Below are positions 1,638 through 57,928 of a stretch of DNA of 64,000 nt, piece after piece. The stretch comes from an uncultured Gammaproteobacteria bacterium (GTDB lineage: Bacteria; Patescibacteriota; Patescibacteriia; Patescibacteriales; UBA12465): contig CAYHCB010000003.1 in assembly GCA_964355275.1 (NCBI GenBank), positions 7,052 through 71,051 of the forward strand, given 5' to 3'. The position numbers and the translations under genes were made by a program. Every line of letters starts with the position of its first letter. Position 1 is the stretch's first letter. Under the pieces are notes generated by a model. The model searched no databases. It saw only the letters and a list, made by a program, of their open reading frames with translations, and was not told the origin of the DNA.

Positions 1638-3200
1638 TTATTTTTTAGTAAATTCGCAACCACAAAATTTCTGACGATAGAAGCCTAATTCTTTGGCCAA
1701 TTCCTGTGATTTTTTATAAATATCACCCGCTCTAAAATCTCTTTCTAAAAAAGAAGTATTATATTTTATAGCTAGTTCTCTAGCTATTTTAGTAAGCGAA
1801 GCGGCGTCTTTATAAGGAGAAACTAACAGACTGGTAGAAAAATAATCAAAGCCCTGCTCCTTGCTTATTTGTGCAGTTTTATCTAAACGGTCATGGTAAC
1901 AAATAAGACAACGGGCGCCACACTCAGCATCACTCTCGTGGCCCGACACCTTAGCTCCCCAGATATCATGATTATACGGTTCGATAATTAAAGAAATATT
2001 ATTTTTCTCGGCAACAACCCGAACCCAAGCTAAACGTTCTTCATATTCAGTTAAAGAACATAAATTAGAATTGTAAAAATATAAAGTTACTGCAAATTCT
2101 TTATTAAGTATCTCCTTAACAAGATAAGCGCTACAAGGAGCACAACACACATGAAGTAAAAGTTTTGGTTTCTTTTTTAATTTAGTTGGTAAATAAGAAA
2201 AAGAAATAACTAAAATAAGCATTACTAAAACTATTCCGCCTAAAGCTAAAAGCTTACCCTGACTTTGTAAAAATAAACCAGCCATTCCGAAAAAAGCTGA
2301 CAAGAAATAAAAAATAAAAACTGTCTGTCTCTGGTTTAAACCTAGAGCCATTAAGCGATGATGTAAGTGTTTTTTATCAGCTGATTTAAAAGGATTCTGT
2401 CTGGCTAGTAAACGACGAGTAATAGTCCAAGCAACATCTAAGATAGGAATACCCATTACCAGTAAAGCAATAGCTATTTTCCCCCCAGAAATTATAGCCA
2501 GCACCCCGAGAGCGAAACCTAAAAAAAGTGAGCCACCTTCTCCTAAAAAAATAGAAGCTGGATTAAAATTGTAAAATAAAAAACCTAAAATGGCTCCGGC
2601 TAAAACTAAAGAGGCAAAAGCAATATCTGGTTGATAATATTTAGTAGTCAGTGTAAAAAGAAAAATAACCAAAGCGCCAATAGTTGAGACTCCACCGACC
2701 AGTCCATCGACACCATCAAGTAATTTAGTGGTATACATCATCCCCATCAACCACAAGGCGATAAAAATTGGCGACAACCAAGTAATCATACTTAAACTAA
2801 CATAGCCACCAAAAGGATTAGATAATTTCAATATTTCAACGCCACCAAGTAAAACGGCAATAATAGCGAGCAGCGGAAAAATTATTTGTTTCTTCGGACT
2901 AAAATTATATTTATCATCTAAGGTGCCGCCGATAATTAAAATTAAAGAACCAATAAAAAATCCTAACCAATGAGACAAATTTAAATTACCAACCAAAAGC
3001 TGTTTGGAAAACAAAAAAATAACAAAAAAGAAAACTATAAAAATAACCGTTCCACCAAGCAGTGGAATCGGTTTAAGATGAATCTTTCTCAGGAAATCCG
3101 GTTTATCAGTAATTTGCCAGCGTGTCGCCAAACGACTCGCCACTGGTGTTAAAATTAAAGATAAAACTAAGGATAAAATAAAAGCCAAAACAAAAACCAT
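1638..3200 (-). CDS. Fusion: MraY/WecA-family polyprenyl-phosphate sugar-1-phosphate transferase (GT4) plus C-terminal QueH (DUF208) epoxyqueuosine reductase domain
   Basis: 520 aa. The first ~340 aa are polytopic and carry MraY/WecA motifs (KLLDGVDGLVGG, NFNPASIFLGEGGSLFLGF, HHRL). The last ~175 aa match QueH: LLLHVCCAPCSAYL, GARCLICYHDRLDKTA, FDYFSTSLLVSPYK, YRQKFCGCEF. The frame is continuous, with no ATG between the last TM helix and the QueH domain. Confidence 0.8.
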   Translation of the reverse strand: MVFVLAFILSLVLSLILTPVASRLATRWQITDKPDFLRKIHLKPIPLLGGTVIFIVFFFVIFLFSKQLLVGNLNLSHWLGFFIGSLILIIGGTLDDKYNFSPKKQIIFPLLAIIAVLLGGVEILKLSNPFGGYVSLSMITWLSPIFIALWLMGMMYTTKLLDGVDGLVGGVSTIGALVIFLFTLTTKYYQPDIAFASLVLAGAILGFLFYNFNPASIFLGEGGSLFLGFALGVLAIISGGKIAIALLVMGIPILDVAWTITRRLLARQNPFKSADKKHLHHRLMALGLNQRQTVFIFYFLSAFFGMAGLFLQSQGKLLALGGIVLVMLILVISFSYLPTKLKKKPKLLLHVCCAPCSAYLVKEILNKEFAVTLYFYNSNLCSLTEYEERLAWVRVVAEKNNISLIIEPYNHDIWGAKVSGHESDAECGARCLICYHDRLDKTAQISKEQGFDYFSTSLLVSPYKDAASLTKIARELAIKYNTSFLERDFRAGDIYKKSQELAKELGFYRQKFCGCEFTKK

Positions 3201-3222: not shown

Positions 3223-5901
3223 TTACAACTCTCGTCCTTTCTCAACACCAATCTGACCTAAAAAATCAATTAAAACTGTATCACGACGTTTTAACTTGTT
3301 AGCTAAAACTAAATTAGCAATTTCATCTTCTACTCTCTCTTGAAGCAAACGTCTAAGTGGTCTAGCCCCAAATTTAGGATCATAACCAGCTTTAGCTAGA
3401 ATTTCTACGCCCTCTTTATCGGCTTTAAAATTTATTCCCTTATCAGCCAAATTTTTCTTAATCTTTTTAAGCATTAAAGTGGCAATCTTGAAAATATTTT
3501 CTTCAGTTAGTGGTTTAAAAACAACAATGCCATCAAAACGATTAATAAGTTCTGGCCGCATGTATTTATTTAATTGATTATCAACTAAGTCTTGCTTAAT
3601 TAAATTAATATCCACACCGAGTTTAATTTCCTCTTGAATAAATATTGAACCAATATTTGAAGTAGCGATAATAATTGACTCTGAGAAACTAATCGTTCTT
3701 CCCTGCCCATCGGTTAAACGTCCATCATCAAGCAATTGTAAAAATAAATTTAAAATATCTGGGTGAGCCTTTTCAATTTCATCAAATAGAATTAAAGAAA
3801 AAGGTTTTTTACGAACTGCTTCAGTTAAATATCCGAGCACCCCTCTTTGATCACCAATCATTTTACTAACACTATCAGCTTCCTGATATTCACTCATATC
3901 TAAACGAACCATATACTTTTCATCTCCAAAATAAACCTGGGAAACTGTTTTAGCTAATTCGGTTTTACCAACACCTGTTGGACCTAAGAATAAAAAACTA
4001 GCAATTGGTCTAACTGAATCCTTAAGTTCGGCTCTTGCTCGACGTAAAGAAGCCGAAACCGCTTTAACTGCCTCATCTTGCCCAACCATTCGTTCATGAA
4101 TATCTATTTCTAAATTAAGTAATTTTTTTCCTTCATCTTCAGAAACTTTACCAGCCGGAATACCGGTCAGCTCTTCAATTGCTAAAGCAACTTCTTCAGC
4201 GCCACAAATAATTTGTTCAGAATTATTTCTCGCCATTTTATTAGTAATGATAACAGCCTTTTGTAACAAATTAATTGTTTTAAGCGGCGCACTAATATCA
4301 TGTAGATATTTATTAGCCAGACTAACAGTCCTTTCTAAGGCGTTATAAGTTAAATAAATACCATAACGCGATTCAAGCGCGCTGGCCTTACTTTCTAAAA
4401 TTTGAATAGTTTGATTAAAATTAGGCTCAGATAATCCGATAGTAGTCATAGCCTCACCCAAAGAAGTGCCTTCTATAAACTTAGAGTAATTTTCCGTGGT
4501 AGCAGTGGCAATACAAAAAATGATTTGTCGATTAACCGCCTCAACTAATACTTCAGATAACTCAAAACTTTCTTCCCCACCGGAACTTATACCCATTAAA
4601 TTTTCAATATCGGGAATAAATAAAATAATATTGCCAGATTGATTAACTTCATTAAGACAAAGGAGCAAGCGTTCCTGAGCTTCACTAGGAGAAGCTCCGG
4701 AAATAAGACTGGCTAAATCAAGCTCTACTAATCGTTTATCTTGTAAAAATTTAGGAACATCTTCTCTAACCATTAATTGAGCTAAACCCTCCACTACAGT
4801 TCTTTTACCAACTCCGGTTTGTCCAATGAGTAAAATACCGGCTTGACCGCTAGAAAAAGCATCAAAAATTGCAGAAAATTCTTTAACCCGATCGATGCAT
4901 AATTCTAATCTACCAGCCCGAGCCGCTAAAGTTAAGTCACTAGAAAAATGATCAAGAGTAGGCGTAGCAATGGCCGTATAAGATCTATTCATCGCACCCC
5001 AAGGTTTTAAACCGGCGGCGTGGTGATAAGAGCGATAACTACTAGTTAATTTTTCATTAACTCTAAACCATTCAACCACATTTTTTATTTTATCGGCATC
5101 AACATCTAAATCATATAAAATTTCTGCTAAAATAGAATCATGAGCATAACAAGGCCAAGCTAAATCTAAAACGGTAGTAGCTGACTGGCGGCGAGTAAAA
5201 GCCTCGAGACCGGCTAATATAATAATCTCTTTTAACTCATTACTTAAAATCGGAGACTTAGCTGAACTTTCATCGTCAGCTAAATGTTTGTCTAATTTCT
5301 GAACAAGCACACTAGCATCAACGCCTAAACGGATAAACATGGCTTGAACTTTTTTAGTCTTGAGTAAAGAACGAAATAAATGGCGAGGCCCCACCTCTTT
5401 CTGTTTTAATTTAGCAGCTAGAATATAAGCCTCTTCTAAAGCAGTCTTAGCTTCATCATCTAAAGTCTTAACTAAATTCCAGGCAGTTTTTTTCTTAAAT
5501 TGCCCGCTACGGTCATCAATCTTTAATTGATGATAATTAATTTTCTGTTTGCTAGCCTTATCAACACTAGACCGATAATATAAAAATAAATCAAAAATAA
5601 GTGACAACAAAAAAAATAAAATAAGGGGATGCTGGTAGTATTCAGGTTGTAAAAATTGTAAAGGACTGGCTAAAAAAACACTTCCTTGCTCATAGCCATA
5701 CCAAATTAAAGCCAGCCAACCTAAAGCGACGATGCAAAAAGAAATTAAATTTATTAAACGACGAATCTTTGCTAGCCCACGATCTAAAACTATTAAAGAG
5801 CGTTTTATATGTAAATCACAAAAAGCAAAACAACCTAAAAACCAAACACCAAAAATATTAGTTTTTTTATTATATTCAAATTGAATTTCGTCTTCACTCA
5901 T
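3223..5901 (-). CDS. Membrane-anchored Clp/Hsp100-family AAA+ protein with degenerate NBD1 and intact NBD2
   Basis: 892 aa with about three N-terminal hydrophobic helices, then Clp_N-like repeats (GPRHLFRSLL, VLDLAWPCYAHDSILAEIL). NBD1 reads GQTGVGKRTVVEGLAQ and ILFIPDIENL, so Walker A T/S and the Walker B DE pair are lost. NBD2 is intact: [40 protein letters not shown]. No coiled-coil M-domain. Confidence 0.8.
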   Translation of the reverse strand: MSEDEIQFEYNKKTNIFGVWFLGCFAFCDLHIKRSLIVLDRGLAKIRRLINLISFCIVALGWLALIWYGYEQGSVFLASPLQFLQPEYYQHPLILFFLLSLIFDLFLYYRSSVDKASKQKINYHQLKIDDRSGQFKKKTAWNLVKTLDDEAKTALEEAYILAAKLKQKEVGPRHLFRSLLKTKKVQAMFIRLGVDASVLVQKLDKHLADDESSAKSPILSNELKEIIILAGLEAFTRRQSATTVLDLAWPCYAHDSILAEILYDLDVDADKIKNVVEWFRVNEKLTSSYRSYHHAAGLKPWGAMNRSYTAIATPTLDHFSSDLTLAARAGRLELCIDRVKEFSAIFDAFSSGQAGILLIGQTGVGKRTVVEGLAQLMVREDVPKFLQDKRLVELDLASLISGASPSEAQERLLLCLNEVNQSGNIILFIPDIENLMGISSGGEESFELSEVLVEAVNRQIIFCIATATTENYSKFIEGTSLGEAMTTIGLSEPNFNQTIQILESKASALESRYGIYLTYNALERTVSLANKYLHDISAPLKTINLLQKAVIITNKMARNNSEQIICGAEEVALAIEELTGIPAGKVSEDEGKKLLNLEIDIHERMVGQDEAVKAVSASLRRARAELKDSVRPIASFLFLGPTGVGKTELAKTVSQVYFGDEKYMVRLDMSEYQEADSVSKMIGDQRGVLGYLTEAVRKKPFSLILFDEIEKAHPDILNLFLQLLDDGRLTDGQGRTISFSESIIIATSNIGSIFIQEEIKLGVDINLIKQDLVDNQLNKYMRPELINRFDGIVVFKPLTEENIFKIATLMLKKIKKNLADKGINFKADKEGVEILAKAGYDPKFGARPLRRLLQERVEDEIANLVLANKLKRRDTVLIDFLGQIGVEKGREL

Positions 5902-6834: not shown

Positions 6835-6863
6835 TTGACAGAGGCTAAACCCTATAGTATTAT
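6835..6863 (+). promoter_or_regulatory. Sigma70-type promoter for clpB (TTGACA-N17-TATTAT)
   Basis: TTGACA at 6835..6840, a 17-nt spacer, then TATTAT at 6858..6863. It lies directly upstream of the CIRCE element. Confidence 0.5.
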
Positions 6864-6867
6864 TAGT

Positions 6868-6894
6868 TTAGCACTCATAATGCTTGACTGCTAA
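6868..6894 (+). promoter_or_regulatory. CIRCE operator (HrcA binding site) upstream of clpB
   Basis: TTAGCACTC-ataatgctt-GACTGCTAA differs from the consensus TTAGCACTC-N9-GAGTGCTAA at one position. It sits 22 nt upstream of the clpB ATG. hrcA is encoded in this window. Confidence 0.8.
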
Positions 6895-6916: not shown

Positions 6917-9550
6917 ATGTTTAATAAATTTACCGATAAATCACAAGAAGTAATTATCAATGCTCAGGTAATCGCTGCCCAAAATGGACAAGCTAATATT
7001 GAAGCAGTCCATATTTTATTGTCTTTGTTGCAACAAAACGAAGGTTTAGTAAAACCATTACTAGAGAAAATAAAAGTTGATCCAGATTTAATTGAAAATT
7101 ATGTTAGTTCTGAAATAAATAAACTTCCTAAGGTTAAAGTTAAGCAACAAAATGGCCCGATTCAAGCTGTTTCCGGTACTAGTGAAACTGCCCTTATTTT
7201 AGAGCGAGCACAAAAAGAAGCCGATGGCATGGGAGATGAATTTATTTCAACTGAACATATACTTTTAGCTTTAATCGGAATACCATCCCCTGCTCAAGCC
7301 CTGCTCCTTAATTTTAAAGCAGAATACCAAACTGTTAAAAATATCTTAAAAAATTTACGTGGTGATGCTCATGTCACTGATCCATATCCAGAAACTAAAT
7401 TTAAAGTTTTAGAAAAATACACTACTAATCTAACAGAATTAGCACGACAAGAAAAACTTGATCCAGTTGTCGGGCGTGATACTGAAATACGTCGCATAAT
7501 GCAGATTCTCTTACGTCGTACTAAAAATAATCCTGTTTTAATTGGAGAACCAGGTACCGGAAAAACCGCCATCGTAGAAGGTTTAGCCCAAAGAATTGTG
7601 TCTGGTGACGTTCCCGAAAATTTAAAAAATAAAGAAGTAGTTACCTTAGATTTAGGGGCACTAGTAGCTGGAGCTAAATTTCGTGGTGAATTTGAGGACC
7701 GTTTAAAAGCAGTGCTTCGAGAAGTAAAATCACAAAATGGTCGGATTATTTTATTTATTGATGAGCTCCACACTCTAGTAGGGGCTGGTGCTAGCGAAGG
7801 ATCAATGGATGCTTCCAATATGTTAAAACCGGCTTTAGCTCGTGGTGAGCTAAGAACAATTGGTGCCGCAACTACTAAAGAATATCAAAAATATATCGAA
7901 CGGGACGCTGCTCTTGAAAGACGTTTTCAACCAATTATTGTTAATGAGCCAAGTGTTGAGGATACAATTAGCATGCTTCGCGGACTTAAAGAAAAATATG
8001 AAGTGCATCATGGTGTCAGAATTACTGATGACGCTTTAATTGCGGCCGCTAAATTATCAGACAGATATATTAGCGATCGTTTTTTGCCAGATAAAGCTGT
8101 TGATTTAATTGATGAAGCAACTTCATCATTACGTATGGAAATTGATTCCATGCCTGAAGAGTTAGATCAACTTAAACGAAAAATTAAACAATTAGAAATT
8201 AATAAAGCCGCTGTTGTAGCGACTGATAAAAAATCTTCAAAATTAAGAGTTATAAATCAAGAGTTAGCTAAATTAAAAGAACACTCCTCTCAATTAGAGC
8301 TTCATTGGAATAATGAAAAGAATATAATTTCTGAAATAAGAAACTCAAAAAAAGAAATAGAGGAGTTAAAAACTAAAGGAGAAATTATCCAAAGACAAGG
8401 TTCTGATTTAACTGAAGTAGCCAAGATTAAATATGGCCTAATTCCTGACTTAGAAAATAATATTAAAAAACTACAAGATGAACTTATAAAAATTCAGAAA
8501 AAAGGACAAAGAATTTTAAAAGAAGAGGTTGGCGAAGAAGATGTGGCTCGCGTAGTTGCTCGCTGGACTGGTATTCCGGTACAAAAAATGTTAACTAGTG
8601 AAGCTAAAAAATTAGGTGAAGCCGAGGCGGTTTTAACTCGCGAAGTGATTGGCCAAGACGAAGCAATTAAAGCGATTTCCAATGCCTTACGTAGGTCGCG
8701 AGCTGGCATCAATGAAGAAAAAAGACCAATTGGTTCCTTTTTGTTTGTCGGGCCAACTGGAGTTGGTAAAACAGAACTCGCTAAAGCGATGGCTCATTTT
8801 ATTTTTGATGACGAAAGTTCTTTAATTAGAATTGATATGAGTGAGTTTATGGAAAAACATTCTGTTGCTAAATTAATCGGCTCTCCGCCAGGATATATTG
8901 GATATGAAGAGGGTGGGCAATTAACTGATAAAGTTCGTCGTCACCCATATTCTGTGGTGTTATTTGATGAAATTGAAAAAGCTCATCCAGACACTTTTAA
9001 TATGCTACTGCAGATTTTAGATGATGGTCGTTTAACCGACTCTAAAGGACGCACAATAAACTTTAAAAATACTATTATTATAATGACTTCTAATTTAGGG
9101 AATGAAATTATAAAACAGTATACAATTGGCTTTAATCCAGACGGACAAGATGACAAAAAAAATTGGCGTCAGGATGAAATGAAAGAAAAAATTGATAAAA
9201 TTCTACGCAGTCATTTTAAATTAGAATTCTTAAATCGGATTGATGAAATTGTTTTATTTAAGAGTTTATCTAAAGAAGCGCTGGAAAATATTGTTGACTT
9301 AGAGCTGATTAAGGTTGAACGTCGTCTACATAATAAAAATATTACTCTTAAAATAAGTGCTAAAGTTAAAAAAATGTTAGCTGAGAAAGGTTATGACCCA
9401 ACCTATGGTGCCAGACCACTAAAGAGAATTATTCAGACCATGTTGCTTGATGAACTAGCTTTAGGAATTATTGAGGGTAAGATTAAGGAGGGCGACAAAG
9501 TAAAAATTGAGATTGGAGAAACGACTGGCGTAGCTATTAGTGTTATATAA
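6917..9550 (+). CDS. clpB: ClpB-type Hsp100 disaggregase (full-length M-domain) carrying a ClpC/ClpA-like IGF loop in NBD2
   Basis: 877 aa with Clp_N repeats. NBD1: [23 protein letters not shown]. The coiled-coil of ~130 aa includes [15 protein letters not shown]2: [31 protein letters not shown]. See the finding on residues 725-771 ([10 protein letters not shown]). Confidence 0.95.
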
Positions 9551-9690: not shown

Positions 9691-11172
9691 ATGTCAAATT
9701 ACCTTTTTTCTATCATTATGTTATTAGCGTTACTGTTGCCTTCTTTTTCAGTTTTCGCTCAAGAGTTAGACCCTAGTTTCAATCCTAATCATATTATTGA
9801 TGACGCTGAAATGTTTGATGTTAAAAGTCTTAGTTTATCAGACATTCAACAATTCTTAGCCCGTAAAAATAGTTATTTAACTAACTATACCACTATAAAC
9901 GCTTATGGGTCTCTTAAAAGTGCCGCCGAAATGATTTACGACGCTGCCAACAATAATTATGATTGTTCTAATATAGATTTAGGAGAAAATCCATCAGAGG
10001 CAATAAGAGCCGCTAAATGTAAAAAGATAACAACTGTTAATCCTAAATTTTTAATAGCTTTACTACAAAAAGAATCTAGTTTAATTGAAAATACCGCCCC
10101 CATTCAAGCTCGTTTAGACTGGGCGACTGGTTATGGTTGCCCCGATGGTAACGCCTGCAACCCCTATTACAAAGGATTAGGTAAACAAATAAACAGCGCC
10201 GCTTTGCAATTTTTAGCCTACATGAATGAACATGAGCGCTATCCTTATAAAATGGGGCAAACCTATGTCTTTACTAATCCTTATGGTACTATTTGCAAAG
10301 ATCCAATGACTGTTACACCAGAAAATAAAGCTACGGCCGCTTTATATAACTACACACCACATGTTTACAATGGTAACTATAACTTTTTCGTATTATATAA
10401 AAAATATTTTCCTGTTGGCACAAAAAGTTACCCAGACGGCACTTTACTGCAAGTTTCTGGTGAACCAGGGGTCTGGTTATTACAAAATGGGCAAAAACGT
10501 CCCTTTGGAAATTATAGTTCTCTGATATCTCGCTTTGACCCCAAAAAAATTGTCATAACCACCTCAGAAGCACTTAGCTCTTACCCTAAAGGCGATACCA
10601 TTAAATTTCCTAATTATTCTTTAATTCAAATTCCTTCTGGAGGAATTTATCTTTTAGTTGATAACGAAAAAAGAGCCATCACCTCAAAAGATATTTTTAA
10701 AAAAATCGGCTTTAACCTTGATGAAATTATTACTGCTAATGCCGAAGATTTAAATTCCTATACTGAGGGGAAAACAATTACCGCTACATCTACTTACCCA
10801 ACTGGTAAATTATTACAGGACCCTAAATCTGGTGGTATTTTTTACGTAGAAAGTGGTTATAAGTATCCAATTACTGATAAAATATTTTTAAGCACTAAAT
10901 TTAAAGGTAAAAAAATAGTCAAAGGAACTACTGTTGAATTAAATAAATATACAAAAGGCAGCCCCGTTCTATTTAGTGACGGTGAATTACTTAGTTCAGT
11001 TAGCTCACCAACTGTTTACTTAATTTCTCAAGGAAAAAAACGCCCTTTTGCTAACGGTTATATTTTTGAAAATTTAGGCTACAAATTCAGCAACGTCGTT
11101 AAAATTTCTCCACAATTACTAGCTCTTTATCCAATGGGTGACACAATAAACATCTTAACTCCTACTAATTAA
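9691..11172 (+). CDS. Secreted protein: lysozyme/transglycosylase-like N-terminal domain (tentative) plus four ~60-aa repeats
   Basis: 493 aa with signal peptide MSNYLFSIIMLLALLLPSFSVFAQ. The N-terminal domain has KFLIALLQKESSL, a Glu-Ser motif reminiscent of lytic transglycosylases, followed by DWATGYGC. Four C-terminal repeats follow [YF]PxGxLLQ...G(I/V)(Y/W)L(L/I)xxGxKRP(F/I). Confidence 0.6.
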   Translation: MSNYLFSIIMLLALLLPSFSVFAQELDPSFNPNHIIDDAEMFDVKSLSLSDIQQFLARKNSYLTNYTTINAYGSLKSAAEMIYDAANNNYDCSNIDLGENPSEAIRAAKCKKITTVNPKFLIALLQKESSLIENTAPIQARLDWATGYGCPDGNACNPYYKGLGKQINSAALQFLAYMNEHERYPYKMGQTYVFTNPYGTICKDPMTVTPENKATAALYNYTPHVYNGNYNFFVLYKKYFPVGTKSYPDGTLLQVSGEPGVWLLQNGQKRPFGNYSSLISRFDPKKIVITTSEALSSYPKGDTIKFPNYSLIQIPSGGIYLLVDNEKRAITSKDIFKKIGFNLDEIITANAEDLNSYTEGKTITATSTYPTGKLLQDPKSGGIFYVESGYKYPITDKIFLSTKFKGKKIVKGTTVELNKYTKGSPVLFSDGELLSSVSSPTVYLISQGKKRPFANGYIFENLGYKFSNVVKISPQLLALYPMGDTINILTPTN

Positions 11173-29459: not shown

Positions 29460-30770
29460 ATGTCCAACAACTTAGGAAAATTTATTGTAATCGACGGCAC
29501 TGACGGGTCTGGCAAGACTACGCAGTTTAATTTATTAGTTGATAGATTAAAAGCTGAGGGTTTTTTAGTTGAGGTAGCTGATTTTCCTCAGTACAATACT
29601 AAATCAGCTGGCATAGTAGAAGAATATTTATCAGGAAAATATGGCAGCGCTAATGAAGTAACGCCATACCAATCCTCGATTTTTTACGCCGTTGATAGAT
29701 ATGACGCTAGTTTTAAAATTAGACAATGGCTAAAAGAAGGAAAAATAGTTGTCGCTAACCGTTATGTGTCTGCTAACATGGGCCATCAAGGTGGAAAAAT
29801 TAGCAACCCTTTAGAACGAAAAGTTTTTTTCAATTGGCTATATGAGCTTGAATACAAACTTTTAAATATTCCCAAACCAGATTTATCACTAATTTTACAC
29901 GTTGAAGCGGAAATTGCTCAAAAATTAGCAACTAATCGTCATCGTGAGGATTGGACTGGCAAAACTAGAGATATTCATGAAGAAAATTTAGATCACCTAC
30001 AAAAAGCCGAGCAAATATATTTAGAAATAGCCAAAACATTTCCCGATTTTAAATTAATAAAATGTACTCGAGAAGGTGAAATTTTAGATCGTGAAGAGAT
30101 TCATCATTTAATCTGGATTTATGCTAATCAAGTAATCGGCGGCAAGGGCGGAAAAACGGCTAGCGGTTTTAGAGCAATTTCAGAAATAATTAGCAAAAAT
30201 ACACAAATTATAAATAATAAAGATTTGTTATTTAAAAAAGAAGAGGGGTCAACTTTCCAACCAGATGCCGCTATTTATGAGGCTATACCACAAAATGAGT
30301 CAGAAGAAGAAATAAAACTAGAAGAAGTAAATAATCAAACAGAAATAATAAAAATAAAAATAGAGAAAATAATTGAAACAGCAAAAATACCAACTAGAGC
30401 TCACCCCAGCGATGCCGGTTTAGATCTTTATGCTTTAGGTGATTACTCTATTGCTCCATATCAACAAGCCCTAATTTCTACTGGCATTAAAATGGCAATT
30501 ACTGCTGGTTATGTTGGTTTGATTTGGGATAAAAGCAGTTTAGCTAGCCAGGGATATAAAACTATGGGTGGCGTAATCGACTCTGGTTATCGTGGTGAAA
30601 TAAAAATAATATTAAAAAATTTAAGTGAGGATATGTATAATGTAGTTAGTGGTCAAAAAATTGCTCAAATACTTATTCAAAAAATAGAAACACCAGAAAT
30701 TGAAGAGGGTCCACTTGAAGACCAAACCAATAGACAGGCTGGCGGATTCGGCAGTAGTGGCGAATTTTAA
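29460..30770 (+). CDS. tmk/dut: Fusion protein: thymidylate kinase (N-terminal) plus dUTPase (C-terminal)
   Basis: 436 aa. The Tmk part has FIVIDGTDGSGKTTQ, AVDRYDAS and ANRYVSANMGHQ. An acidic linker of about 80 aa follows. The Dut part has AHPSDAGLDLYA, GVIDSGYRGEIKIILKN, QKIAQILIQK and GGFGSSG. Confidence 0.9.
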   Translation: MSNNLGKFIVIDGTDGSGKTTQFNLLVDRLKAEGFLVEVADFPQYNTKSAGIVEEYLSGKYGSANEVTPYQSSIFYAVDRYDASFKIRQWLKEGKIVVANRYVSANMGHQGGKISNPLERKVFFNWLYELEYKLLNIPKPDLSLILHVEAEIAQKLATNRHREDWTGKTRDIHEENLDHLQKAEQIYLEIAKTFPDFKLIKCTREGEILDREEIHHLIWIYANQVIGGKGGKTASGFRAISEIISKNTQIINNKDLLFKKEEGSTFQPDAAIYEAIPQNESEEEIKLEEVNNQTEIIKIKIEKIIETAKIPTRAHPSDAGLDLYALGDYSIAPYQQALISTGIKMAITAGYVGLIWDKSSLASQGYKTMGGVIDSGYRGEIKIILKNLSEDMYNVVSGQKIAQILIQKIETPEIEEGPLEDQTNRQAGGFGSSGEF

Positions 30771-36523: not shown

Positions 36524-38443
36524 ATGAAAAAAATATTGCTAAAATTAGAGGAAAATATACTTATAGCCTTAAGTCTGATCATGATTTGGGGCGCCTTTAT
36601 TTATTACATATACAATTTATCTTGGTCGGGCATCATCTTAACTTTAATTTTAAGTAGTTTATCATTTTATTTAAGAGATAGATTTTTACAAAAAAAAATA
36701 GAAGAAACAGAGATAATAGATATAATCCCTCAAAAAAGCTGGCTTCATATTTGGTGGCCAATTTTTATTTATCTTTTTTTTATTTCTATTTCTTTTTTAA
36801 TATTAAGTAAAAATTCTAGCTCAGACGCTCTTTTGTCACCCTGGTCTGTAGTGCCTTATAGTTTTTTTTACTTTTATTTTACAGCCACAGCTTGGTTATT
36901 TTATGTTTTAAGTAGACAACTTAAACCAAATTACAAACTCTGGCTACTCAGATTACACTATTTTCTAGCTTTTTCTGTAGTTATTATAGTTTACAAAATT
37001 GGTTATGGTTTTGATCCTTTTATTCATCAAGCAACCATGGAACTAATTGATAAACAAAGTTATGTTCTCCCAAAACCTTTATATTATTTAGGAGAATATT
37101 CTTTAATAGTTATTTTTCATAAAATTAGTGGCATCTCAATCTACTTATTAAACAAAATAATTGTCCCTTTACTAGCGTCTCTCTTGTTACCGGGGGCAAT
37201 CTTCTCTTTCCTTAAAAATAATGGTTCACCTAAACGAGCGGCTATAACTACTTTAGTTTTGCTAGCCTTACCCATTAACCTTTTTATACTCAGTACGCCA
37301 CAAAATTTAACCTATCTTTGGCTCACCTTACTTATACTTTATTCCTTTACAAGCCACTTAACTTTCTTGCCAGCGATTTTAGCGGCGGCCGCTCTATCAC
37401 TACACCCCCTAGGTGGAATACCAGCTTTATTTTTTATAGCTTGGGTTAGTATCTTAAAAAGAAAAGCTAAATTAAAAATTATTTGGTGGCGGACGCTTAA
37501 TATTATTCTGTGGCTACTAATGGCCCTGTCCTTACCTCTTTCTTTTACATTAATTACTAAACAATCCTGGCATGATTTATCATTTTCCGCCCAAGAACTT
37601 TTAGCCATACTTAAAACTAGTGCTACAAATACTAATTTAGGTGATTTCGTTCTTAACTTTAATTATTTTCTGGCCAACAATTGGTTATTTATATTTATTT
37701 TAATTACGACTAGCGGCTTTATTATTTGGTTTAAAAAAAATCATGACGAAGCCTCTTTGCTTATAAAAATATTTAGTGCCCTTTTAATTGGTTTTGCGCT
37801 TAGCGCTTCACTTAAATTTACTTTTTTAATCGATTACGAGCGCAGTAATTATATTTCTCGTTTACCCGTGTTAATGGGTCTGTTTGTTTTACCGGCTTTA
37901 ATTTTAGCCGTAGATTATTTACTTTCTAAAATATGGCGAGCAACAAAAAATGAAATCATCAGTGCTTGGCTTATTATTACAATTTTAATAACGGCCTCTC
38001 TATATTTATCTTACCCTCGTCTTGATGCCTATATAAACTCCCGTGGTTATAGCGTATCAGCCGCCGATATTTTAGCAGTTCGCTCGATTGATAAACAAAC
38101 TAATAAACCTTACTTAGTGCTCGCTAATCAACAAACTAGTGTCGCCTCTTTAAAAGAATTAGGTTTTAACCATTATTTTGAAACAGCTTCTGGTCCAATA
38201 TTCTTTTACCCAATTCCTACTGGCGGTCAGCTTTATAGTTATTATTTAGAGATGGTAAACAAAAACCCCGATCGTAAAACTATGGTAGCGGCCATGGATT
38301 TAGTCGGAGTTAACGAATCTTATTTTGTGATAAGTAAATATTGGTGGCTTAGCAGCAGATTAATTGCCGAAGCAAAAATTAATGCCAACTCTTTTTGGGA
38401 AGTAAGTAATGGTGATATTTATATTTTTAAATTTAATCGCTAA
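36524..38443 (+). CDS. Polytopic membrane protein with C-terminal soluble domain (possible second GT-C-like enzyme)
   Basis: 639 aa with about 14 hydrophobic segments, then a tail of about 150 aa. Transcribed divergently from the GT39-like gene. No catalytic motif recognised. Confidence 0.5.
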   Translation: MKKILLKLEENILIALSLIMIWGAFIYYIYNLSWSGIILTLILSSLSFYLRDRFLQKKIEETEIIDIIPQKSWLHIWWPIFIYLFFISISFLILSKNSSSDALLSPWSVVPYSFFYFYFTATAWLFYVLSRQLKPNYKLWLLRLHYFLAFSVVIIVYKIGYGFDPFIHQATMELIDKQSYVLPKPLYYLGEYSLIVIFHKISGISIYLLNKIIVPLLASLLLPGAIFSFLKNNGSPKRAAITTLVLLALPINLFILSTPQNLTYLWLTLLILYSFTSHLTFLPAILAAAALSLHPLGGIPALFFIAWVSILKRKAKLKIIWWRTLNIILWLLMALSLPLSFTLITKQSWHDLSFSAQELLAILKTSATNTNLGDFVLNFNYFLANNWLFIFILITTSGFIIWFKKNHDEASLLIKIFSALLIGFALSASLKFTFLIDYERSNYISRLPVLMGLFVLPALILAVDYLLSKIWRATKNEIISAWLIITILITASLYLSYPRLDAYINSRGYSVSAADILAVRSIDKQTNKPYLVLANQQTSVASLKELGFNHYFETASGPIFFYPIPTGGQLYSYYLEMVNKNPDRKTMVAAMDLVGVNESYFVISKYWWLSSRLIAEAKINANSFWEVSNGDIYIFKFNR

Positions 38444-40776
38444 CGCCCCTCTTTATAAGAAAAAATTGGACCGACAGCAATATACTTTCCCTCACCAGAT
38501 TCATAAACTAGTGTTATTAATTTTATACTTAATTCTTCGCGTAAATTACCGTCTCCAGATTTTAAGTAAAGTTGATTAACGGGCGCCTGTTTAATCTCAT
38601 ACTGTTTCGCAAAAGAATTAATAAAACTTTGATTATCAGAATTAAACGCTTCTCCGTTTAATTCTTTTTTTATTAATTCTAAAAATTGTTGAAGCTTACT
38701 ATTTTCATCCTTAAGAGCGATCGCCACGGAGCTTACTTTTTTATTAATCCCCATAACATCAAGCATACCATACATCATTTCATTGTCAGCAATTAATTTT
38801 TGTACTAAAGCATAGTTTGGTTCGATATAAAAATTATCATTAAAAAAAACTTCATTAGAGAGACCCTTCTTAACAGGCGCACTGGCAGGAATTAATTGCT
38901 CGAGGGGTAATTGTAAATCCACCCAAGCAGAGCCAGCGGTATCGACTAAACGTTCACGCCAGAGCTCTGTTCTAAAATAAGCTTGTGATTGATCATTATT
39001 ACTATTAAAAATCATTTTAATAGTACCTAACATAGACCAAAAATTATTATTATGCCAAATAGAAGCATTTTTTAACTCATTTTTTAAAGCTAAAAAGTGC
39101 TCTGGGTAAGCAGTAAAACTCGTATTTTCCTGCCAATAACTACTGCTAGCTAGTTTATCTGTTACTAAGCCAACAATATCTAAACTAAAGCCACCACAAC
39201 GATTAGTGCTTTGTTTACAGATTGTATAATTATTAAAAGTTACTTTTTGGCCATTATATTTACCAATAGCAGCGCCTGATAAACGATTAAAAATATATTC
39301 ATTAGGAAAATAGTAATCGGATAAAAGTTTAAACCCTAAATCAGTTTTATCTTTATTTTTATCTAAACCACCTTGGAAAGAATTAAACTCTAAGGCGAGT
39401 AAGGCTGACCTTAATTTATCCATATTTTTACTAGAATCAGGATTACTTTCTACAAAAATAAGTTCGGGGTCATATTCGTTACCAAATAAAGCCTTCATTG
39501 TTTCATCGTAGTTGCGGTAATTTAAATCTTCACGCAAACCTTTAGAGTAAGAAACTAATTTATAAACCAAGGCCCAACGATTTTTTAAATCCTGATCGCT
39601 AGAAAAATCTTTAGTAATAAAACTAGAAGCAATTAAACTTAAACGGGCATCCTCTTTATCAAGTAGACAAGTAGGACAAACTTTATCTTTTATAACTAAA
39701 GGAAACACCGAATTAAGCCACTTGCTTGCTAAATAAAAATTATAAAGTTTTTCATTACTACGATATTCAGTTGGTACCACAAAATCTACATAATTTTGTT
39801 GATATAAAAGAACTGGAGACTTTTTAATTCCGCGAGCGGCTTTAATTAAATTAATTTCTTCTCCAGCATCACTTTGTAAATATGGTAAAAGTGTAAATGA
39901 AAGATTAGAAGCTTCACTAACGGAAAACTTCTTTACGTCTTTTCCGCTAACATCAATTTGCGTAATACTTGGTTCAAGTAATTTTAAAGCAACAGCAAAA
40001 TAGGCCATCGCCAACCTTTCGCCTTCTAAAATAGAATCATTAACCTTTCCAATTTTAGCTAAACGAGCCTCATAGCGACTCTTTGAAGATTCATACAAAG
40101 ATTTAGAAATACGCCACAAGTTATCGTAGAAAATATTTTCTTCGATATCTTTAAAAGCTTGTTTAATAACATTTTGATGATAGTGCATTAAAAAATCAGA
40201 AGTAATAAGCAGCGGCACCTCTTTATTTGATAACCAAGAGTAGGCACTATAAAAATCTTTTATATCTTTTTCCGAAGGATTATTCAAAATTGCAAAACCA
40301 TTAGTATTTAAACTACTGATACTGCTATCTAAACTCAATTTACGAGAGACATCGTAATAATTTAACACATCAATTTTTACATTAAGCGGTAAAGCATAAT
40401 CTTTAAAATTAAATTCTGGAATCGGTGCTGGCTCAGTAAAAAAATCATTAAAACTATATTTTTCTAATTCCGCAGCAGCCGTAGAGGTAGCCATATCATC
40501 AGTACTAGTACTTATATCTGTTGGCAAAACACCAACCGTAGTAGTAACAGTTTGTTCAGTTCCCGTTGCTGGTGCTGGAATTACAATTTTTTCGGGACGC
40601 TTTAAAAAGTTAAAAATTAACCAAGTTACTAACAGAATAATAAACAATAAAATAATACCAAAAACAACTAATACTTTTTTATTAGCTAAAAGTAATTTTA
40701 CCCCACCACTTTCAATAGGTTCTTCGTTTATGGGACTAGCTTCAGTTTGGTTAGTTGGCTCAATTTGATTAAACAT
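38440..40776 (-). CDS. Large N-terminally anchored extracytoplasmic protein (DUF3160-like, tentative)
   Basis: 778 aa with one TM helix (VVFGIILLFIILLVTWLIFNF), a Thr-rich linker and then a large alpha-rich domain. LLITSDFLMHYHQNVIKQAF resembles what I recall of DUF3160. Its stop overlaps the convergent gene by 4 nt. Confidence 0.5.
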   Translation of the reverse strand: MFNQIEPTNQTEASPINEEPIESGGVKLLLANKKVLVVFGIILLFIILLVTWLIFNFLKRPEKIVIPAPATGTEQTVTTTVGVLPTDISTSTDDMATSTAAAELEKYSFNDFFTEPAPIPEFNFKDYALPLNVKIDVLNYYDVSRKLSLDSSISSLNTNGFAILNNPSEKDIKDFYSAYSWLSNKEVPLLITSDFLMHYHQNVIKQAFKDIEENIFYDNLWRISKSLYESSKSRYEARLAKIGKVNDSILEGERLAMAYFAVALKLLEPSITQIDVSGKDVKKFSVSEASNLSFTLLPYLQSDAGEEINLIKAARGIKKSPVLLYQQNYVDFVVPTEYRSNEKLYNFYLASKWLNSVFPLVIKDKVCPTCLLDKEDARLSLIASSFITKDFSSDQDLKNRWALVYKLVSYSKGLREDLNYRNYDETMKALFGNEYDPELIFVESNPDSSKNMDKLRSALLALEFNSFQGGLDKNKDKTDLGFKLLSDYYFPNEYIFNRLSGAAIGKYNGQKVTFNNYTICKQSTNRCGGFSLDIVGLVTDKLASSSYWQENTSFTAYPEHFLALKNELKNASIWHNNNFWSMLGTIKMIFNSNNDQSQAYFRTELWRERLVDTAGSAWVDLQLPLEQLIPASAPVKKGLSNEVFFNDNFYIEPNYALVQKLIADNEMMYGMLDVMGINKKVSSVAIALKDENSKLQQFLELIKKELNGEAFNSDNQSFINSFAKQYEIKQAPVNQLYLKSGDGNLREELSIKLITLVYESGEGKYIAVGPIFSYKEGR

Positions 40777-52752: not shown

Positions 52753-53838
52753 TTAAATATCTAAATCTTCTAGTAAACGTTTCTGGTTTTTATTTAAATC
52801 CTTAGGAATAAAGACATTTATTTTAACATAATGATCACCTTTTCCTCTATTTTGCAGCTTTGTGACTCCCTTTTCCTTTAATTTAAAAACTGTACCCGAT
52901 TGAGTTCCCTCAGGAATTTTTAAGGTCAGGGGTCCATGAATTGTGGAAATTTCTATTTTATCTCCCAAAATAGCTTGTTTTACATTAATTTTTTCCTCAG
53001 TTCTAATATCATAATTATCACGCACAAATTTCTGGTGCTTTTCAACTCTAATTCGTAAATATAAATCTCCCGCTGGGGCGCCTTTTTGTCCCGCTTCTCC
53101 CTGACCACTTAAACGAATTGATTCTCCGTCATTTACACCGGCGGGAATTTTAACTTTTAATTTTACCTCTTCTTTAACTATTCCCGTGCTACGACACTTA
53201 GAGCATTTAGTATTATAAGTTTTACCCTCTCCGCCACAAGCAGAGCAGTTCATTCTGGTTTGGATATTACCCAAAATAGTTCTTTGAACACCAATAACTT
53301 GACCGGTACCACCACAATTAGTGCAAGTATCAATCTTTGTTCCAGGCTCAGCTCCAACCCCATGGCAATGATTACAAGTTATATTTTTTGCAAAAGAAAG
53401 TTCTTTATCTAGACCAAAAGCAGCTTCTAAAAATTCTAAATTTACTATCATCTCTAAATCACTACCTTGTCGTCCTTTTTTAGAAGTAGTTCGGCCACCG
53501 CCAAAACCAAAAATATCACCAAAGCCACCAAATAAATCATCCATATCTACGCCGCCGCCACTAAAACCGGAGAAATCAAAGCCTCCCATGCCACCTTGGC
53601 CGCCATGACCAGCGCCACCTGCTTGGCCACTTTGAAAATTTGAACCAAACTGATCGTACTGCTTACGTTTTTTTTCATTACCTAAAACCTGATAAGCCTC
53701 ATTATACTCTTTAAATTTTTCCTCATTACCGCCTTTGTCAGGATGATGCTCGTGAGCTTTTTTTCGAAAAGCCACTTTTATTTCCTCGGCGCTAGCATTC
53801 TTAGATACGCCCAATGTACTATAGTAATCTTTTGACAT
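52753..53838 (-). CDS. dnaJ: Chaperone DnaJ (type I Hsp40)
   Basis: 361 aa. J-domain with HPDK, a G/F-rich region, four CxxCxGxG zinc-finger repeats and a C-terminal substrate-binding domain. Confidence 0.95.
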   Translation of the reverse strand: MSKDYYSTLGVSKNASAEEIKVAFRKKAHEHHPDKGGNEEKFKEYNEAYQVLGNEKKRKQYDQFGSNFQSGQAGGAGHGGQGGMGGFDFSGFSGGGVDMDDLFGGFGDIFGFGGGRTTSKKGRQGSDLEMIVNLEFLEAAFGLDKELSFAKNITCNHCHGVGAEPGTKIDTCTNCGGTGQVIGVQRTILGNIQTRMNCSACGGEGKTYNTKCSKCRSTGIVKEEVKLKVKIPAGVNDGESIRLSGQGEAGQKGAPAGDLYLRIRVEKHQKFVRDNYDIRTEEKINVKQAILGDKIEISTIHGPLTLKIPEGTQSGTVFKLKEKGVTKLQNRGKGDHYVKINVFIPKDLNKNQKRLLEDLDI

Positions 53839-53931
53839 AATTTAAATAAACTTATATTTAGAAACGGATAGATTAGTATTTTTAACTTAAGCGGTCACTC
53901 CTTAAAAAAGAAGTGACCTATAAGTTTTAAA

Positions 53932-55830
53932 TTATTTTTTTTCTTCAACCTCACCTTCAACTGTCTCTTCTTCTTTTTTATCTTCAGTCTGAGCTTCAGT
54001 AGCAGCTTCAGGTTGGGCTTCAGTGGCACCAGCCGCTTGATACATAGCAGCACCAATTTTTTGAGCCACGGTATTTACCTCCTCTAAGCTCTTTTTAACC
54101 GCTTCTAAGTCATTAGCCTCTTTAGATTTTTTAAGCTCAGCGACTTTAGTCTCAAGCTCAACCTTATCCTCGGCCTTCATTTTGTCACCAGATTCTTTTA
54201 ACATTTTTTCCGTGGTGAATATAACCGCATCAGCTTGGTTAATCATTTCAACATCTTCTTTTTTCTTTTTATCTTCCTCAGCATGAGCCTCGGCTTCTTT
54301 TTTCATTCGCTCAACCTCTTCTTTGGATAAACCAGAAGAAGCGGTTATCGTAATTTTTTGTTGTTTACTAGTGGCCTTATCAGTTGCGCTAACATTTAAA
54401 ATTCCATTAGCGTCAATATCAAACTTAACCTCAATCTGAGGAACGCCACGAGGCGCCGCTGGAATTCCATCTAATATAAAACGACCTAAAGTTTTATTAT
54501 CATGAGCCATTGGACGCTCACCTTGTACAATATGAATTTCTACACTGTTTTGACTATCAGCCGCCGTAGAAAATACTTGAGATTTAGAAGTTGGAATAGT
54601 GGTGTTTCGATCTATTAAAGCAGTTGCCACACCACCCATAGTTTCGATTCCTAAAGTAAGTGGCGTGACATCCAAAAGTAGGACATCTTTTACATCACCT
54701 TGCAAAACGCCGGCTTGAACAGCCGCACCAAGAGCAACTACTTCATCAGGATTAACACTTAAATTTGGTTCTTTACCAAAATATTCTTTAACTTTTTGTA
54801 GCACTAAAGGCATGCGAGTCATACCACCAACCATAATAATTTCGTTTATATCTGATAATTTAAAACCAGAATCAGTTAAAGCTTTTTTACATGGTTCAAT
54901 AGTTTTTTCTACTAAATCACCAACTAAAGTTTCGAGTTTAGCACGAGACATTTTCATTACTAAATGCTTTGGCCCATTAGCGTCAGTAGAAATAAATGGT
55001 TGGTTTATTTCTGTGTCCATAGCAGTTGATAATTCAATTTTAGCTTTTTCGGCAGACTCCTTAATTCTTTGTAAGGCTAAAGTATCATTTGATAAATCAA
55101 TGCCTTGATCTTTTTTAAATTCAGAAATTATCCAATCGATAATTCGTTTATCAAAATCTTCACCTCCCAAATGAGTATCTCCGTTAGTTGCTTTAACTTC
55201 AACGGTATCAGCAGAAATATCTAACACTGAAACATCAAAAGTGCCACCGCCTAAATCATACACCACAATTTTTTGTCCTTGTTTTTTATCAAAACCATAA
55301 GCTAAAGCTGCGGCTGTTGGTTCATTGATAATCCGTTTAACGTCTAAACCAGCAATAAGCCCAGCGTCTTTAGTTGCCTGACGTTGAGCGTCATCAAAAT
55401 AAGCAGGCACGGTAATGATAGCTTCTGTTATTACTTCTCCTGTTTTAGCTTCAGCGTCTGCCTTCATTTTAGCAAGGATCATAGCTGAGGCTTCTTGCGG
55501 AGTATATTCACCATCGCCCATCTTTACTTTTACGCCCTCACCAGCGGCAACTATTTTATAAGGCATCGTTCCTAAATCACGTTGGACTTCTTCATCTTTA
55601 AAATTGCGACCAATTAAACGTTTTACTGCATAAACGGTATTCTCAGGGTTTATAACCGCCTGTCTTTTTGCGGCCTGGCCAACTAAGCGTTCGTTATTTT
55701 TTGAAATAGCCATAACTGATGGCGTAGTACGATTACCTTCAATGTTTTCTAAAATTTTAGGAACACCACCCTCCATGATTGCCATGGCGCTATTTGTTGT
55801 TCCTAAATCAATTCCTAAAATTTTTCCCAT
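53932..55830 (-). CDS. dnaK: Chaperone DnaK (Hsp70)
   Basis: 632 aa. [27 protein letters not shown], and an acidic C-terminal tail. Confidence 0.97.
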
Positions 55831-55916
55831 ATAATTTTTATTATTTATTATTTACTTGTTATTACCCAGACATTCCGGTGCTTAAACTATTAAGCACCGA
55901 GTATATGGGTAAATAA

Positions 55917-56354
55917 TTATTTATTAGTTTCTATTTTTATAGTTTTTGGTTTAACATCCTTCTCTTTCGGTACAACTATTTTTAAAATACCGCCGACTGA
56001 GGTAGCTTTAGCGGCATCACCATTAACTCTAGTCGGTAATGGTATAGAACGATAGAAAGAACCGCGACGAATTTCTTTACGATAATAATTTTTTTCATCA
56101 ATTTCTCTTCTTTTCTCACTTTCCCCCTTCATACTTAAAATATTATTTTCGATAGAAATCTCCACTTGATCTGGACTAATTCCAGCTAACTGGGTCTCAA
56201 TAGTAATGTTATCCTTATCTTCGTAAACATCTACAGCTGGGGTAAAGCCAAATTGAGCTCCACTAACCGTAGGTAACATGTCAGAAAACATTTTGTTTAC
56301 ATCATCTTCGCCAAAATTATCAGCAAAGAAAGGGGTCCATTTAATAAGCGACAT
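55917..56354 (-). CDS. Hsp20/alpha-crystallin small heat-shock protein
   Basis: Alpha-crystallin domain (PAVDVYEDKDNITIETQLAGISPDQVEISIENNILSMKGE...FYRSIPLP...GILKIVVPK). I prefer the start at 56354 (MSLIKWTPFF). The track start at 56471 overlaps grpE and adds non-homologous residues. Confidence 0.9.
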   Translation of the reverse strand: MSLIKWTPFFADNFGEDDVNKMFSDMLPTVSGAQFGFTPAVDVYEDKDNITIETQLAGISPDQVEISIENNILSMKGESEKRREIDEKNYYRKEIRRGSFYRSIPLPTRVNGDAAKATSVGGILKIVVPKEKDVKPKTIKIETNK

Positions 56355-56424
56355 ATAATAAAATAATTTTCTTGCAAAATTTTTATTTAAATAAAAATAG
56401 ATGCAAAAAAAATAATTAACAGTC

Positions 56425-57213: not shown

Positions 57214-57215
57214 AT

Positions 57216-57920
57216 TTATTTAAATTTATTTTTTATATAGTTAACTAAAGCCAAGTTATGAGCATAGTCCATTCTAGTGGGACCTATTAAACCAAAAACG
57301 CCAGTTTTATTTTCTTTTGAATACTTAACTAAAACCGTACTTAAAAAATTACCGAAAGGATTTTTTGAACCAATCATTACTTGTTCGTCGTATTCTAAAT
57401 CTTCAAATAAATCATCAATAATATCTTCCATATGATCAATAACGACCGAAACATCGTAAACTATTTCTGACTGTTTAAATTCTGGTTGAGCAAATAAATT
57501 AGATAAACCGGTATAATACAAATCATTCTTATGAAAAGCCCAAAATACCGCACAATTAGCTAGCTCAGCAATCGCTTTCGCCGTCGCCTTAGCACCAGTC
57601 TCTTCATGAGAAAATAAATTATTAAGTAAATTTACTTCTGCTTCTTTAAGACTTCTTCTGTCTTTACTATTATTAATTTCTATCAGTTCCAGCTCGTAAG
57701 CTAGCTCTGTGGGAACCCTACCGGCTGAAGTGTGTGGCTGGACGATATAGCCCTCATCTTCTAACTCCACCATATCATTACGAATAGTAGCTGGTGATAC
57801 CCCCAATTTACATTTTTCCACCAACATCCCAGAAGACACTGGTTGAGCATTTTTTAAATACTCTTTAATAATGGTGCGTAAAATTATTTTTTTTCGTTCA
57901 CTTATCATATAATTACTCAT
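57216..57920 (-). CDS. hrcA: Heat-inducible transcription repressor HrcA (short form)
   Basis: N-terminal winged helix (SERKKIILRTIIKEYLKNAQPVSSGMLV...VSPATIRNDMVELEDEGYIVQPHTSAGRVPT) and C-terminal GLIGPTRMDYAHNL. At about 234 aa it is shorter than the ~340 aa typical of HrcA. The start is ambiguous (57929, 57920 or 57908); the promoter position favours 57920 or later. Confidence 0.88.
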   Translation of the reverse strand: MSNYMISERKKIILRTIIKEYLKNAQPVSSGMLVEKCKLGVSPATIRNDMVELEDEGYIVQPHTSAGRVPTELAYELELIEINNSKDRRSLKEAEVNLLNNLFSHEETGAKATAKAIAELANCAVFWAFHKNDLYYTGLSNLFAQPEFKQSEIVYDVSVVIDHMEDIIDDLFEDLEYDEQVMIGSKNPFGNFLSTVLVKYSKENKTGVFGLIGPTRMDYAHNLALVNYIKNKFK

Positions 57921-57928
57921 CTTTAGCA

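Follow-up and report, generated by a model that had tools for sequence, protein, structure and literature searches.

A ClpB-type Hsp100 of a Falkowbacteria-like bacterium carries an IGF loop of the ClpA/ClpC type and is a plausible natural counterpart of the engineered ClpP-binding variant BAP

The gene at 6917..9550 (plus strand) of a 64,000-nucleotide stretch of DNA from an uncultured bacterium (assembly GCA_964355275.1, contig CAYHCB010000003.1, positions 7,052 to 71,051; hereafter the window) encodes a ClpB-type Hsp100 of 877 amino acids, as assigned from its open reading frame and its Pfam, NCBIfam and PDB matches. On sequence grounds, this protein belongs to a ClpB clade of the Candidate Phyla Radiation (CPR) in which 10-11 extra residues in a helix-loop-helix of the second nucleotide-binding domain (NBD2) bear an [IL]GF motif of the ClpA/ClpC type. 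ClpB has been described as lacking a ClpP-docking motif (PMC5540906; PMC10149685), and BAP, an engineered E. coli ClpB carrying the ClpP-docking loop (P-loop) of ClpA, binds ClpP, converting DnaK-dependent disaggregation into degradation (PMC5540906). We put at roughly one in two the probability that the protein studied here is a natural counterpart of BAP, that is, a DnaK-gated and heat-induced ClpB whose IGF loops dock ClpP, so that at least part of the extracted protein is degraded.

The loop in question lies in a segment of 38 residues (729-766; 9101..9214, plus strand), delimited by alignments and by AlphaFold2 (AF2) as a helix-loop-helix between the sensor-1 sequence MTSNLG (residues 723-728) and the F.PEF.NRID sequence beginning at residue 767. 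Direct reading of the DNA places the codons att ggc ttt of I737, G738 and F739 at 9125..9133 (plus strand); both the length of the segment and the position of the codons are as given in an earlier description made from the letters and their open reading frames only (the sequence-only reading). Alignments with ClpB, ClpC1, ClpC, ClpA and BAP indicate that the 38 residues are homologous with the segment forming the P-loop in ClpA and in ClpC, as well as with the swap site of BAP. In the BAP chain of PDB entry 5ofo, the sequence differs from ClpB exactly here, reading MTSNLG-[ClpA VRETERKSIGLIHQDNSTDAMEEIKKI]-FRPEFINRIDE. Alignment of Thermus ClpB with the query opens a 10-residue gap across the IGF-bearing stretch, and a query stretch of 102 residues corresponds to 91 residues in the ClpBs of E. 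coli and Thermus and to 100 in Streptomyces ClpC1. The latter (PDB 8xon) is the best PDB match of the 102-residue segment, nearly gapless and with its LGF placed over the query IGF, where the VGF of ClpC also aligns. The offset of the tripeptide after SN.G is 8 residues in the query, as for the IGL of ClpA, and 9 in ClpC and ClpC1. The protein thus has the xGF loop in the NBD2 helix-loop-helix that is a hallmark of ClpC, and departs from the ClpB hallmark of an NBD2 without an [ILV]G[FL] ClpP-docking loop, since its IGF (residues 737-739) stands at the P-loop position.

The view that this loop is of the ClpC/ClpA type was put forward in the sequence-only reading and is upheld by the position of IGF at the homologous site, aligned with the LGF of ClpC1, the VGF of ClpC and the IGL-bearing segment of ClpA and BAP. 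The B. subtilis ClpC string quoted there matched the PDB sequence at 100% (ClpC residues 636-734), and a fragment of E. coli ClpA did so equally (100%). The same reading had also stressed the length of the segment, and this argument holds in part. Canonical ClpBs have a segment of 27-28 residues without xGF (28 in Thermus ClpB), compared with 38 in the query, 35 in ClpC and 36 in ClpC1. However, the segment of ClpA and BAP is also 27 residues long and yet bears IGL, so that length alone is no marker and what counts is a correctly spaced tripeptide. By our own rough estimate, a lone [ILVM]G[FL] would arise by chance within 38 residues in 5-10% of cases. The motif observed here appears to be more than such a coincidence because it has the homologous offset, is accompanied by an insertion, and is conserved in 119 of 120 homologues, next to the 13-residue window that varies most within the protein.

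This conservation was determined among the 120 closest homologues (≥80% identity; Candidatus Falkowbacteria/Patescibacteria), in which I737 and G738 are invariant (120/120) and F739 is replaced only once (119/120), the remaining sequence reading IGI. Residues 741-753, immediately after the tripeptide (9137..9175, plus strand), vary more in the same sample than any other 13-residue window of the protein (entropy 2.35 bits on average, as compared to 0.43 bits over the whole chain). An invariant tip carried by a tether that varies freely is the pattern that should be expected of a docking loop, as far as sequence conservation can indicate it.

A wider comparison, covering the 150 best-matching cluster representatives of a library of 1.8 billion proteins, revealed the extended loop in further ClpB-type representatives at only 44-54% identity, namely P0121 (LGF), P0129 (IGF) and P0132 (IGF). 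Of these three, at least two come from CPR bacteria, P0121 being located on a CPR-like contig and the P0129 cluster including Candidatus Pacebacteria. Motif and insertion are both absent from the 36 other ClpB-type representatives, which have short loops without GF. The xGF loop is therefore not unique to the query gene, and it marks a CPR ClpB clade.

Two further representatives deserve separate mention. P0122 (L002:10001-12634, GCA_964386545.1), which is clearly of the ClpB type, carries, at the NBD2 site in question, a 12-residue MGF insertion of its own (PMGFGAPGDKDK). The genes around it, lysC, ptsP, prfA and prmC, look alphaproteobacterial, and for this reason the xGF loop of this ClpB seems to have arisen independently, as a rare event. 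P0237, considered as another xGF-bearing ClpB, was rejected because it is a Firmicutes ClpC encoded in a ctsR-mcsB operon.

AF2, run on an alignment of 128 sequences, gave a model with a mean predicted local distance difference test (pLDDT) score of 85.6. In the NBD2 segment it predicts a helix at 729-737, an unstructured tip at 738-744 (pLDDT <50 at 739-743) and a second helix at 745-766, thereby placing IGF at the flexible tip of the helix-loop-helix. A Foldseek search of the PDB did not discriminate, its matches to ClpC-ClpP, to BAP-ClpP and to ClpB entries being of about equal quality.

Outside this loop, the protein has the features of ClpB. Pfam recognizes Clp_N, AAA, AAA_lid_9, AAA_2 and ClpB_D2-small, and the translation comprises Clp_N and two AAA+ modules with intact Walker A/B motifs and pore-loop aromatics (GEPGTGKT and GYIGYEEGG among them). 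The top NCBIfam model is ClpB (TIGR03346, 1217.5 bits), followed at a distance by ClpA (769 bits). The curated ClpB equivalog cutoff of 1232.1 is narrowly missed, consistent with the label 'AAA family ATPase' that NCBI gives to most of the homologues. Among solved structures, the closest relatives are the ClpBs of M. tuberculosis (929 bits), Thermus (915) and E. coli (898), whereas B. subtilis ClpC (778 bits) matches in two pieces because it is devoid of most of the M-domain. The nearest homologues are 80-93% identical metagenomic sequences, the named ones being Candidatus Falkowbacteria or 'Patescibacteria group', and the G+C content of the window is 33%. We conclude that an ultrasmall CPR bacterium resembling Candidatus Falkowbacteria is the source of this ClpB.

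The M-domain (residues ~405-535; 8129..8521, plus strand) is of full length and contains two coiled-coil motifs, as judged from its span, its alignment and the AF2 model. The region of residues 400-540 spans 141 residues in the query, and mostly 133-146 in ClpB-type representatives but mostly 71-86 in those of the ClpC type. It can be aligned end to end with the M-domains of the E. coli, M. tuberculosis and Thermus ClpBs, and AF2 predicts helices at 414-436, 441-494 and 498-529. In motif 2 (8420..8455, plus strand), alignment onto the E. coli sequence LQYGKIPELE identifies a tyrosine equivalent to Y503 of E. coli ClpB, a residue that has a role in Hsp70-dependent control. The span and the end-to-end alignment bear out the proposal of the sequence-only reading that a complete two-motif ClpB M-domain is present. 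The short single-motif M-domain typical of ClpC (71-86 residues) is thus not what is found here, nor are the traits of ClpA, in which an M-domain is absent and the N-domain binds ClpS: the query has an M-domain and scores only 769 bits with the ClpA model.

The upstream region of the gene points to heat-shock control. A CIRCE element (HrcA operator) of the form TTAGCACTC-N9-GACTGCTAA, with 1 mismatch, lies at 6868..6894 (plus strand), 23 nt upstream of the clpB start codon, and is directly preceded by a putative sigma-70-like promoter, TTGACA-17-TATTAT (6835..6863, plus strand), which matches 11 of 12 consensus positions and is recognized by consensus only. A perfect CIRCE at 57942..57968 precedes an hrcA-grpE-hsp20-dnaK-dnaJ operon on the minus strand (52753..57968, with the genes at 57929..52753), identified from a Pfam HSP70 match and from the HrcA, GrpE, HSP20, HSP70 and DnaJ entries of the gene table. 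These two are the only CIRCE matches in the window, where 0.02 would be expected by chance. As both clpB and the hrcA-dnaK operon carry an HrcA operator, it is very likely, judging from these sequence elements, that clpB and its presumed Hsp70 partner form part of one HrcA heat-shock regulon.

A potential docking partner is widespread among related bacteria. A scan with a codon-level clpP pattern (SPGG...AASMG motifs; one genome per GTDB species) returned at least three CPR genomes with clpP among the 120 matches listed (Uhrbacteria, Buchananbacteria and Peregrinibacteria). Protein searches seeded with a Buchananbacteria ClpP, and then with a ClpP labelled Falkowbacteria, each gave at least 120 matches at ~77% identity or more, and every named match listed was from Patescibacteria (Buchanan-, Uhr-, Magasanik- and Doudnabacteria, Parcubacteria and one Falkowbacteria metagenome-assembled genome). 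The CPR ClpPs retain the catalytic motifs; they were also seen to have HQVMGG in place of the HQPLGG of E. coli. Their genes usually stand in the order rpoC/rpoB - rbfA - DHH phosphoesterase - clpP. In none of the ~130 CPR clpP loci examined (L314, L316, L334, L336, L338, L464, L466 and the 120 metagenome loci L340-L459) does clpX adjoin clpP, and on an 886-kb chromosome counted among them clpP is followed by the trigger factor gene, with no clpX there. On one metagenome contig (L439:1-5622), the genes clpP, tyrS, htrA (for an htrA-like protease) and clpB follow one another on one strand, clpP and clpB being 3.2 kb apart. The ClpB encoded there includes a complete M-domain, and its highest identities are to the xGF-bearing groups (53% to the IGF group and 51% to P0121, as compared to 45-48% for ordinary ClpBs).

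According to the reading that we favour, the hexamer would be switched on at aggregates by DnaK through the full M-domain, as in ordinary ClpB, and the six flexible IGF loops would dock into hydrophobic pockets on a heptamer of ClpP, whose gene would lie elsewhere in the genome. The polypeptide chains drawn from aggregates would then be degraded and not merely released for refolding, and two modes of action may exist, depending on ClpP occupancy. From the precedent of BAP we infer both docking and degradation, and the notion of a natural BAP is a plausible one. We favour it because the insertion occupies the very segment that was exchanged for that of ClpA in BAP (PDB 5ofo), because the offset of IGF equals that of the ClpA IGL and the LGF of ClpC1 aligns nearly gapless, and because IGF is kept in 119/120 close homologues and as [IL]GF at 44-54% identity, the 36 other ClpB-type representatives lacking motif and insertion alike. 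Further reasons are the ClpB identity that runs along the whole chain, the helix, disordered tip and helix predicted by AF2, and the CIRCE elements before both clpB and the hrcA-dnaK operon. Finally, canonical ClpP is widespread in related CPR bacteria without clpX beside clpP in ~130 loci, and L439 links clpP with a clpB nearest the xGF-bearing groups.

Several observations weigh against this reading. Neither clpP nor clpX was found in the window, using tblastn with the E. coli sequences and Pfam on nearly all open reading frames, and neither gene was found in ~6.5 kb of additional flank (3 kb upstream and 3.4 kb downstream), making ~70 kb in total; genes for ClpA, ClpS and Lon are likewise absent from the window and these flanks. 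The check for clpP in this genome, which the sequence-only reading had proposed, thus extends over ~70 kb, with a negative outcome there and a positive one in related CPR lineages. No link was found that would place an IGF-bearing ClpB and a ClpP in one genome. Eight contigs of 0.5-1 Mb that carry an IGF-ClpB are absent from the two lists of 120 ClpP matches and from the ~80 of the 120 metagenome clpP loci compared, which is weak evidence because the match lists are samples. The Falkowbacteria label occurs once among the named ClpP matches listed and frequently among the ClpB matches. The part of the L439 clpB that encodes NBD2 lies beyond the fetched stretch, leaving its loop unseen, and the predicted placement of IGF on the bottom face of the ring is drawn by homology from ClpA, ClpC and BAP. 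The accessions MFA5184222 and MFA5188301, with numbers ~4,000 apart, do not belong to one genome, no gene common to the clpP loci and the window exceeds 56% identity, and no clpP was present near the more distant xGF-ClpBs at L003 (P0121) and L002 (P0122) or at L460-462 (P0274).

These observations leave room for the main rival explanation, which we regard as rather unlikely and which stays alive because no ClpP is linked to these genomes: the loop may be specific to a lineage without ClpP, in which IGF would be either a relic or a contact site for another partner, for a neighbouring subunit or for an adjacent membrane-anchored Clp-like ATPase, the protein being an ordinary DnaK-dependent disaggregase. 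The missing clpP in the ~70 kb, the lack of overlap between IGF-ClpB and ClpP contigs among the matches listed and the uneven occurrence of Falkowbacteria names would all fit such a lineage, and the unrelated MGF insertion of P0122 illustrates that a sporadic origin is possible. However, a relic would not be expected to stay in 119/120 sequences next to the most variable 13 residues of the protein, nor to persist as [IL]GF at 44-54% identity, and the offset and helix-loop-helix context match those of real P-loops. Moreover, ClpP is common in sister CPR lineages, and L439 links clpP to a clpB of this clade.

A further and distinctly less probable alternative concerns function and ancestry. The protein could work as a protease subunit in the manner of ClpC, or could represent an ancient intermediate Hsp100 lineage in which the P-loop was never lost, with a long M-domain but regulated by adaptors and not by DnaK, acting as the main ATPase of regulated proteolysis and not as a disaggregase. 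The xGF loop is indeed nearer to ClpC/ClpC1 than to ClpA in length and flanks, ClpC1 being the top match of the segment, and the query scores just under the ClpB equivalog cutoff. Hidden Markov models of the two classes (36 representatives in which a long M-domain goes with the absence of GF, and 46 in which a short M-domain goes with its presence; four-fold cross-validation) gave log-odds for the query of +17.4 in the N-domain (class means: ClpB +9.4, ClpC -41.0), +12.5 in NBD1 (+13.2 and -19.5) and +6.4 in NBD2 without the loop (+10.3 and -12.8). Within NBD2, the small subdomain scored +5.2 (+3.7 and -6.2) and the large subdomain was neutral at -1.3 (+6.6 and -7.8), a point in favour of an intermediate, as are the log-odds near zero of the CPR members P0129 and P0132 in several domains. 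Separate phylogenies of NBD1 and NBD2, suggested in the sequence-only reading, were informative for NBD1 only: in neighbour-joining trees of 116 representatives, NBD1 places the query among the ClpB-type proteins, while the NBD2 tree is star-like and without resolution, which is also compatible with an intermediate. The signature of a ClpC-type N-domain and of ClpC-type nucleotide-binding domains is nevertheless missing from the query, in which N-domain, NBD1 and NBD2 small subdomain all score ClpB-like, and the full-length M-domain has a motif 2 with the Y503 equivalent. No ctsR, mcsA, mcsB or mecA-type genes are found nearby, and clpB instead has a CIRCE as before the dnaK operon. A true ClpC with an enlarged M-domain, P0237 of Firmicutes, sits in a ctsR-mcsB operon, unlike the query. 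By these models, the protein is ClpB-like throughout.

A chimera in which the N-terminal part, NBD1 and M-domain of a ClpB are joined to the NBD2 of a ClpC is very improbable, since, despite a mixture of ClpB- and ClpC-type representatives among the nearest NBD2 neighbours by distance, NBD2 without its loop (+6.4) and the small subdomain (+5.2) lean towards ClpB and the ClpC-like part is limited to an insertion of ~11 residues. The idea of a ClpB/ClpC hybrid raised in the sequence-only reading is accordingly not supported if taken to mean that NBD2 was grafted from a ClpC, the log-odds being ClpB-like in N-domain, NBD1 and loop-less NBD2. In the functional sense of one protein replacing both ClpB and ClpC, it is no more than suggested, by the absence of clpX beside clpP in the ~130 CPR loci. 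Extended to a large CPR branch, the natural-BAP reading would make ClpB the only ClpP-docking unfoldase, gated by DnaK, regulated by HrcA and covering the jobs of ClpB, of ClpC/ClpA and perhaps of ClpX, a generalization that we consider possible and put forward tentatively.

Compared with known systems, the query resembles BAP (PDB 5ofo, 5og1, 4d2q) in its full ClpB architecture with an IG[L/F] helix-loop-helix between MTSNLG and FRPEFINRIDE. BAP, in contrast, is man-made and has a 27-residue segment from ClpA, whereas the query loop is natural, 38 residues long and thus of ClpC-like length, conserved in a CPR clade and predicted to bind ClpP. The swap of the ClpA segment into ClpB was reportedly enough for ClpP binding (Weibezahn 2004, as summarized in PMC5540906). 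With ClpC and ClpC1 of B. subtilis, S. aureus, Mycobacterium and Streptomyces the query shares Clp_N, two AAA+ modules and an xGF loop (35-36 residues in these proteins) at the same NBD2 site. It differs from them by its M-domain (141 as compared to 71-86 residues, the latter with a single motif), and ClpC further has an adaptor-binding N-domain and, in Firmicutes, a ctsR-mcsA-mcsB context. Canonical ClpB/Hsp104 (E. coli, T. thermophilus, M. tuberculosis) has the same domain order, a full M-domain with the motif-2 tyrosine and heat-shock regulation alongside dnaK, and provides the best overall matches, but its segment of 27-28 residues is without xGF and it is described as not binding ClpP. 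A 2023 survey states ClpB groups to be uniformly without LGF and ClpI to be the only Clp group known to its authors both with and without it (PMC10149685). ClpI of Actinomycetota sets the precedent that members of one double-ring Clp group may have LGF loops or lack them, although it has a short ClpC-like M-domain and belongs to a separate actinobacterial lineage. The literature searched contained no description of a naturally occurring P-loop ClpB and no account of the ClpP content or Clp repertoire of CPR bacteria.

The surroundings of clpB contain a second Clp-family gene (3223..5901, minus strand), ~1 kb away on the opposite strand. Its product of 892 amino acids has helices of transmembrane appearance at the N-terminus and a region resembling Clp_N; NBD1 is degenerate (Walker A GQTGVGKRT), NBD2 is intact, and there is no xGF loop. 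Homologues of this protein (33-37% identity) are encoded 5-8 kb from clpP in the CPR metagenome contigs L358 and L415. Directly downstream of clpB, a gene at 9691..11172 (plus strand) encodes a protein of 493 amino acids with a signal-peptide-like N-terminus and no Pfam match. Elsewhere in the window there are two apparent fusions, one of a glycosyltransferase-4 (MraY-like) domain with QueH (1638..3200, minus strand) and one of thymidylate kinase with dUTPase (29460..30770, plus strand), as well as a 778-residue DUF3160 protein (38440..40776, minus strand) and a 639-residue protein without Pfam match (36524..38443, plus strand).

Teaching presents ClpB/Hsp104 as the Hsp100 devoted to refolding and never to degradation, and the absence of an IGL/F loop serves as the sequence marker that sets it apart from ClpA and ClpC (PMC5540906, PMC10149685). 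The only known ClpB-ClpP machine is the engineered BAP, whose relevance to natural threading is still debated, and a natural and conserved P-loop ClpB, if confirmed, would provide this debate with a physiological system. It would also caution annotators against treating M-domain length and the presence of a P-loop as strictly coupled. The hypothesis is directly testable with a cognate ClpP, and many CPR ClpP sequences are available. If true, it would show how reduced genomes merge quality-control pathways, with a natural BAP-ClpP machine operating in a minimal proteostasis network.

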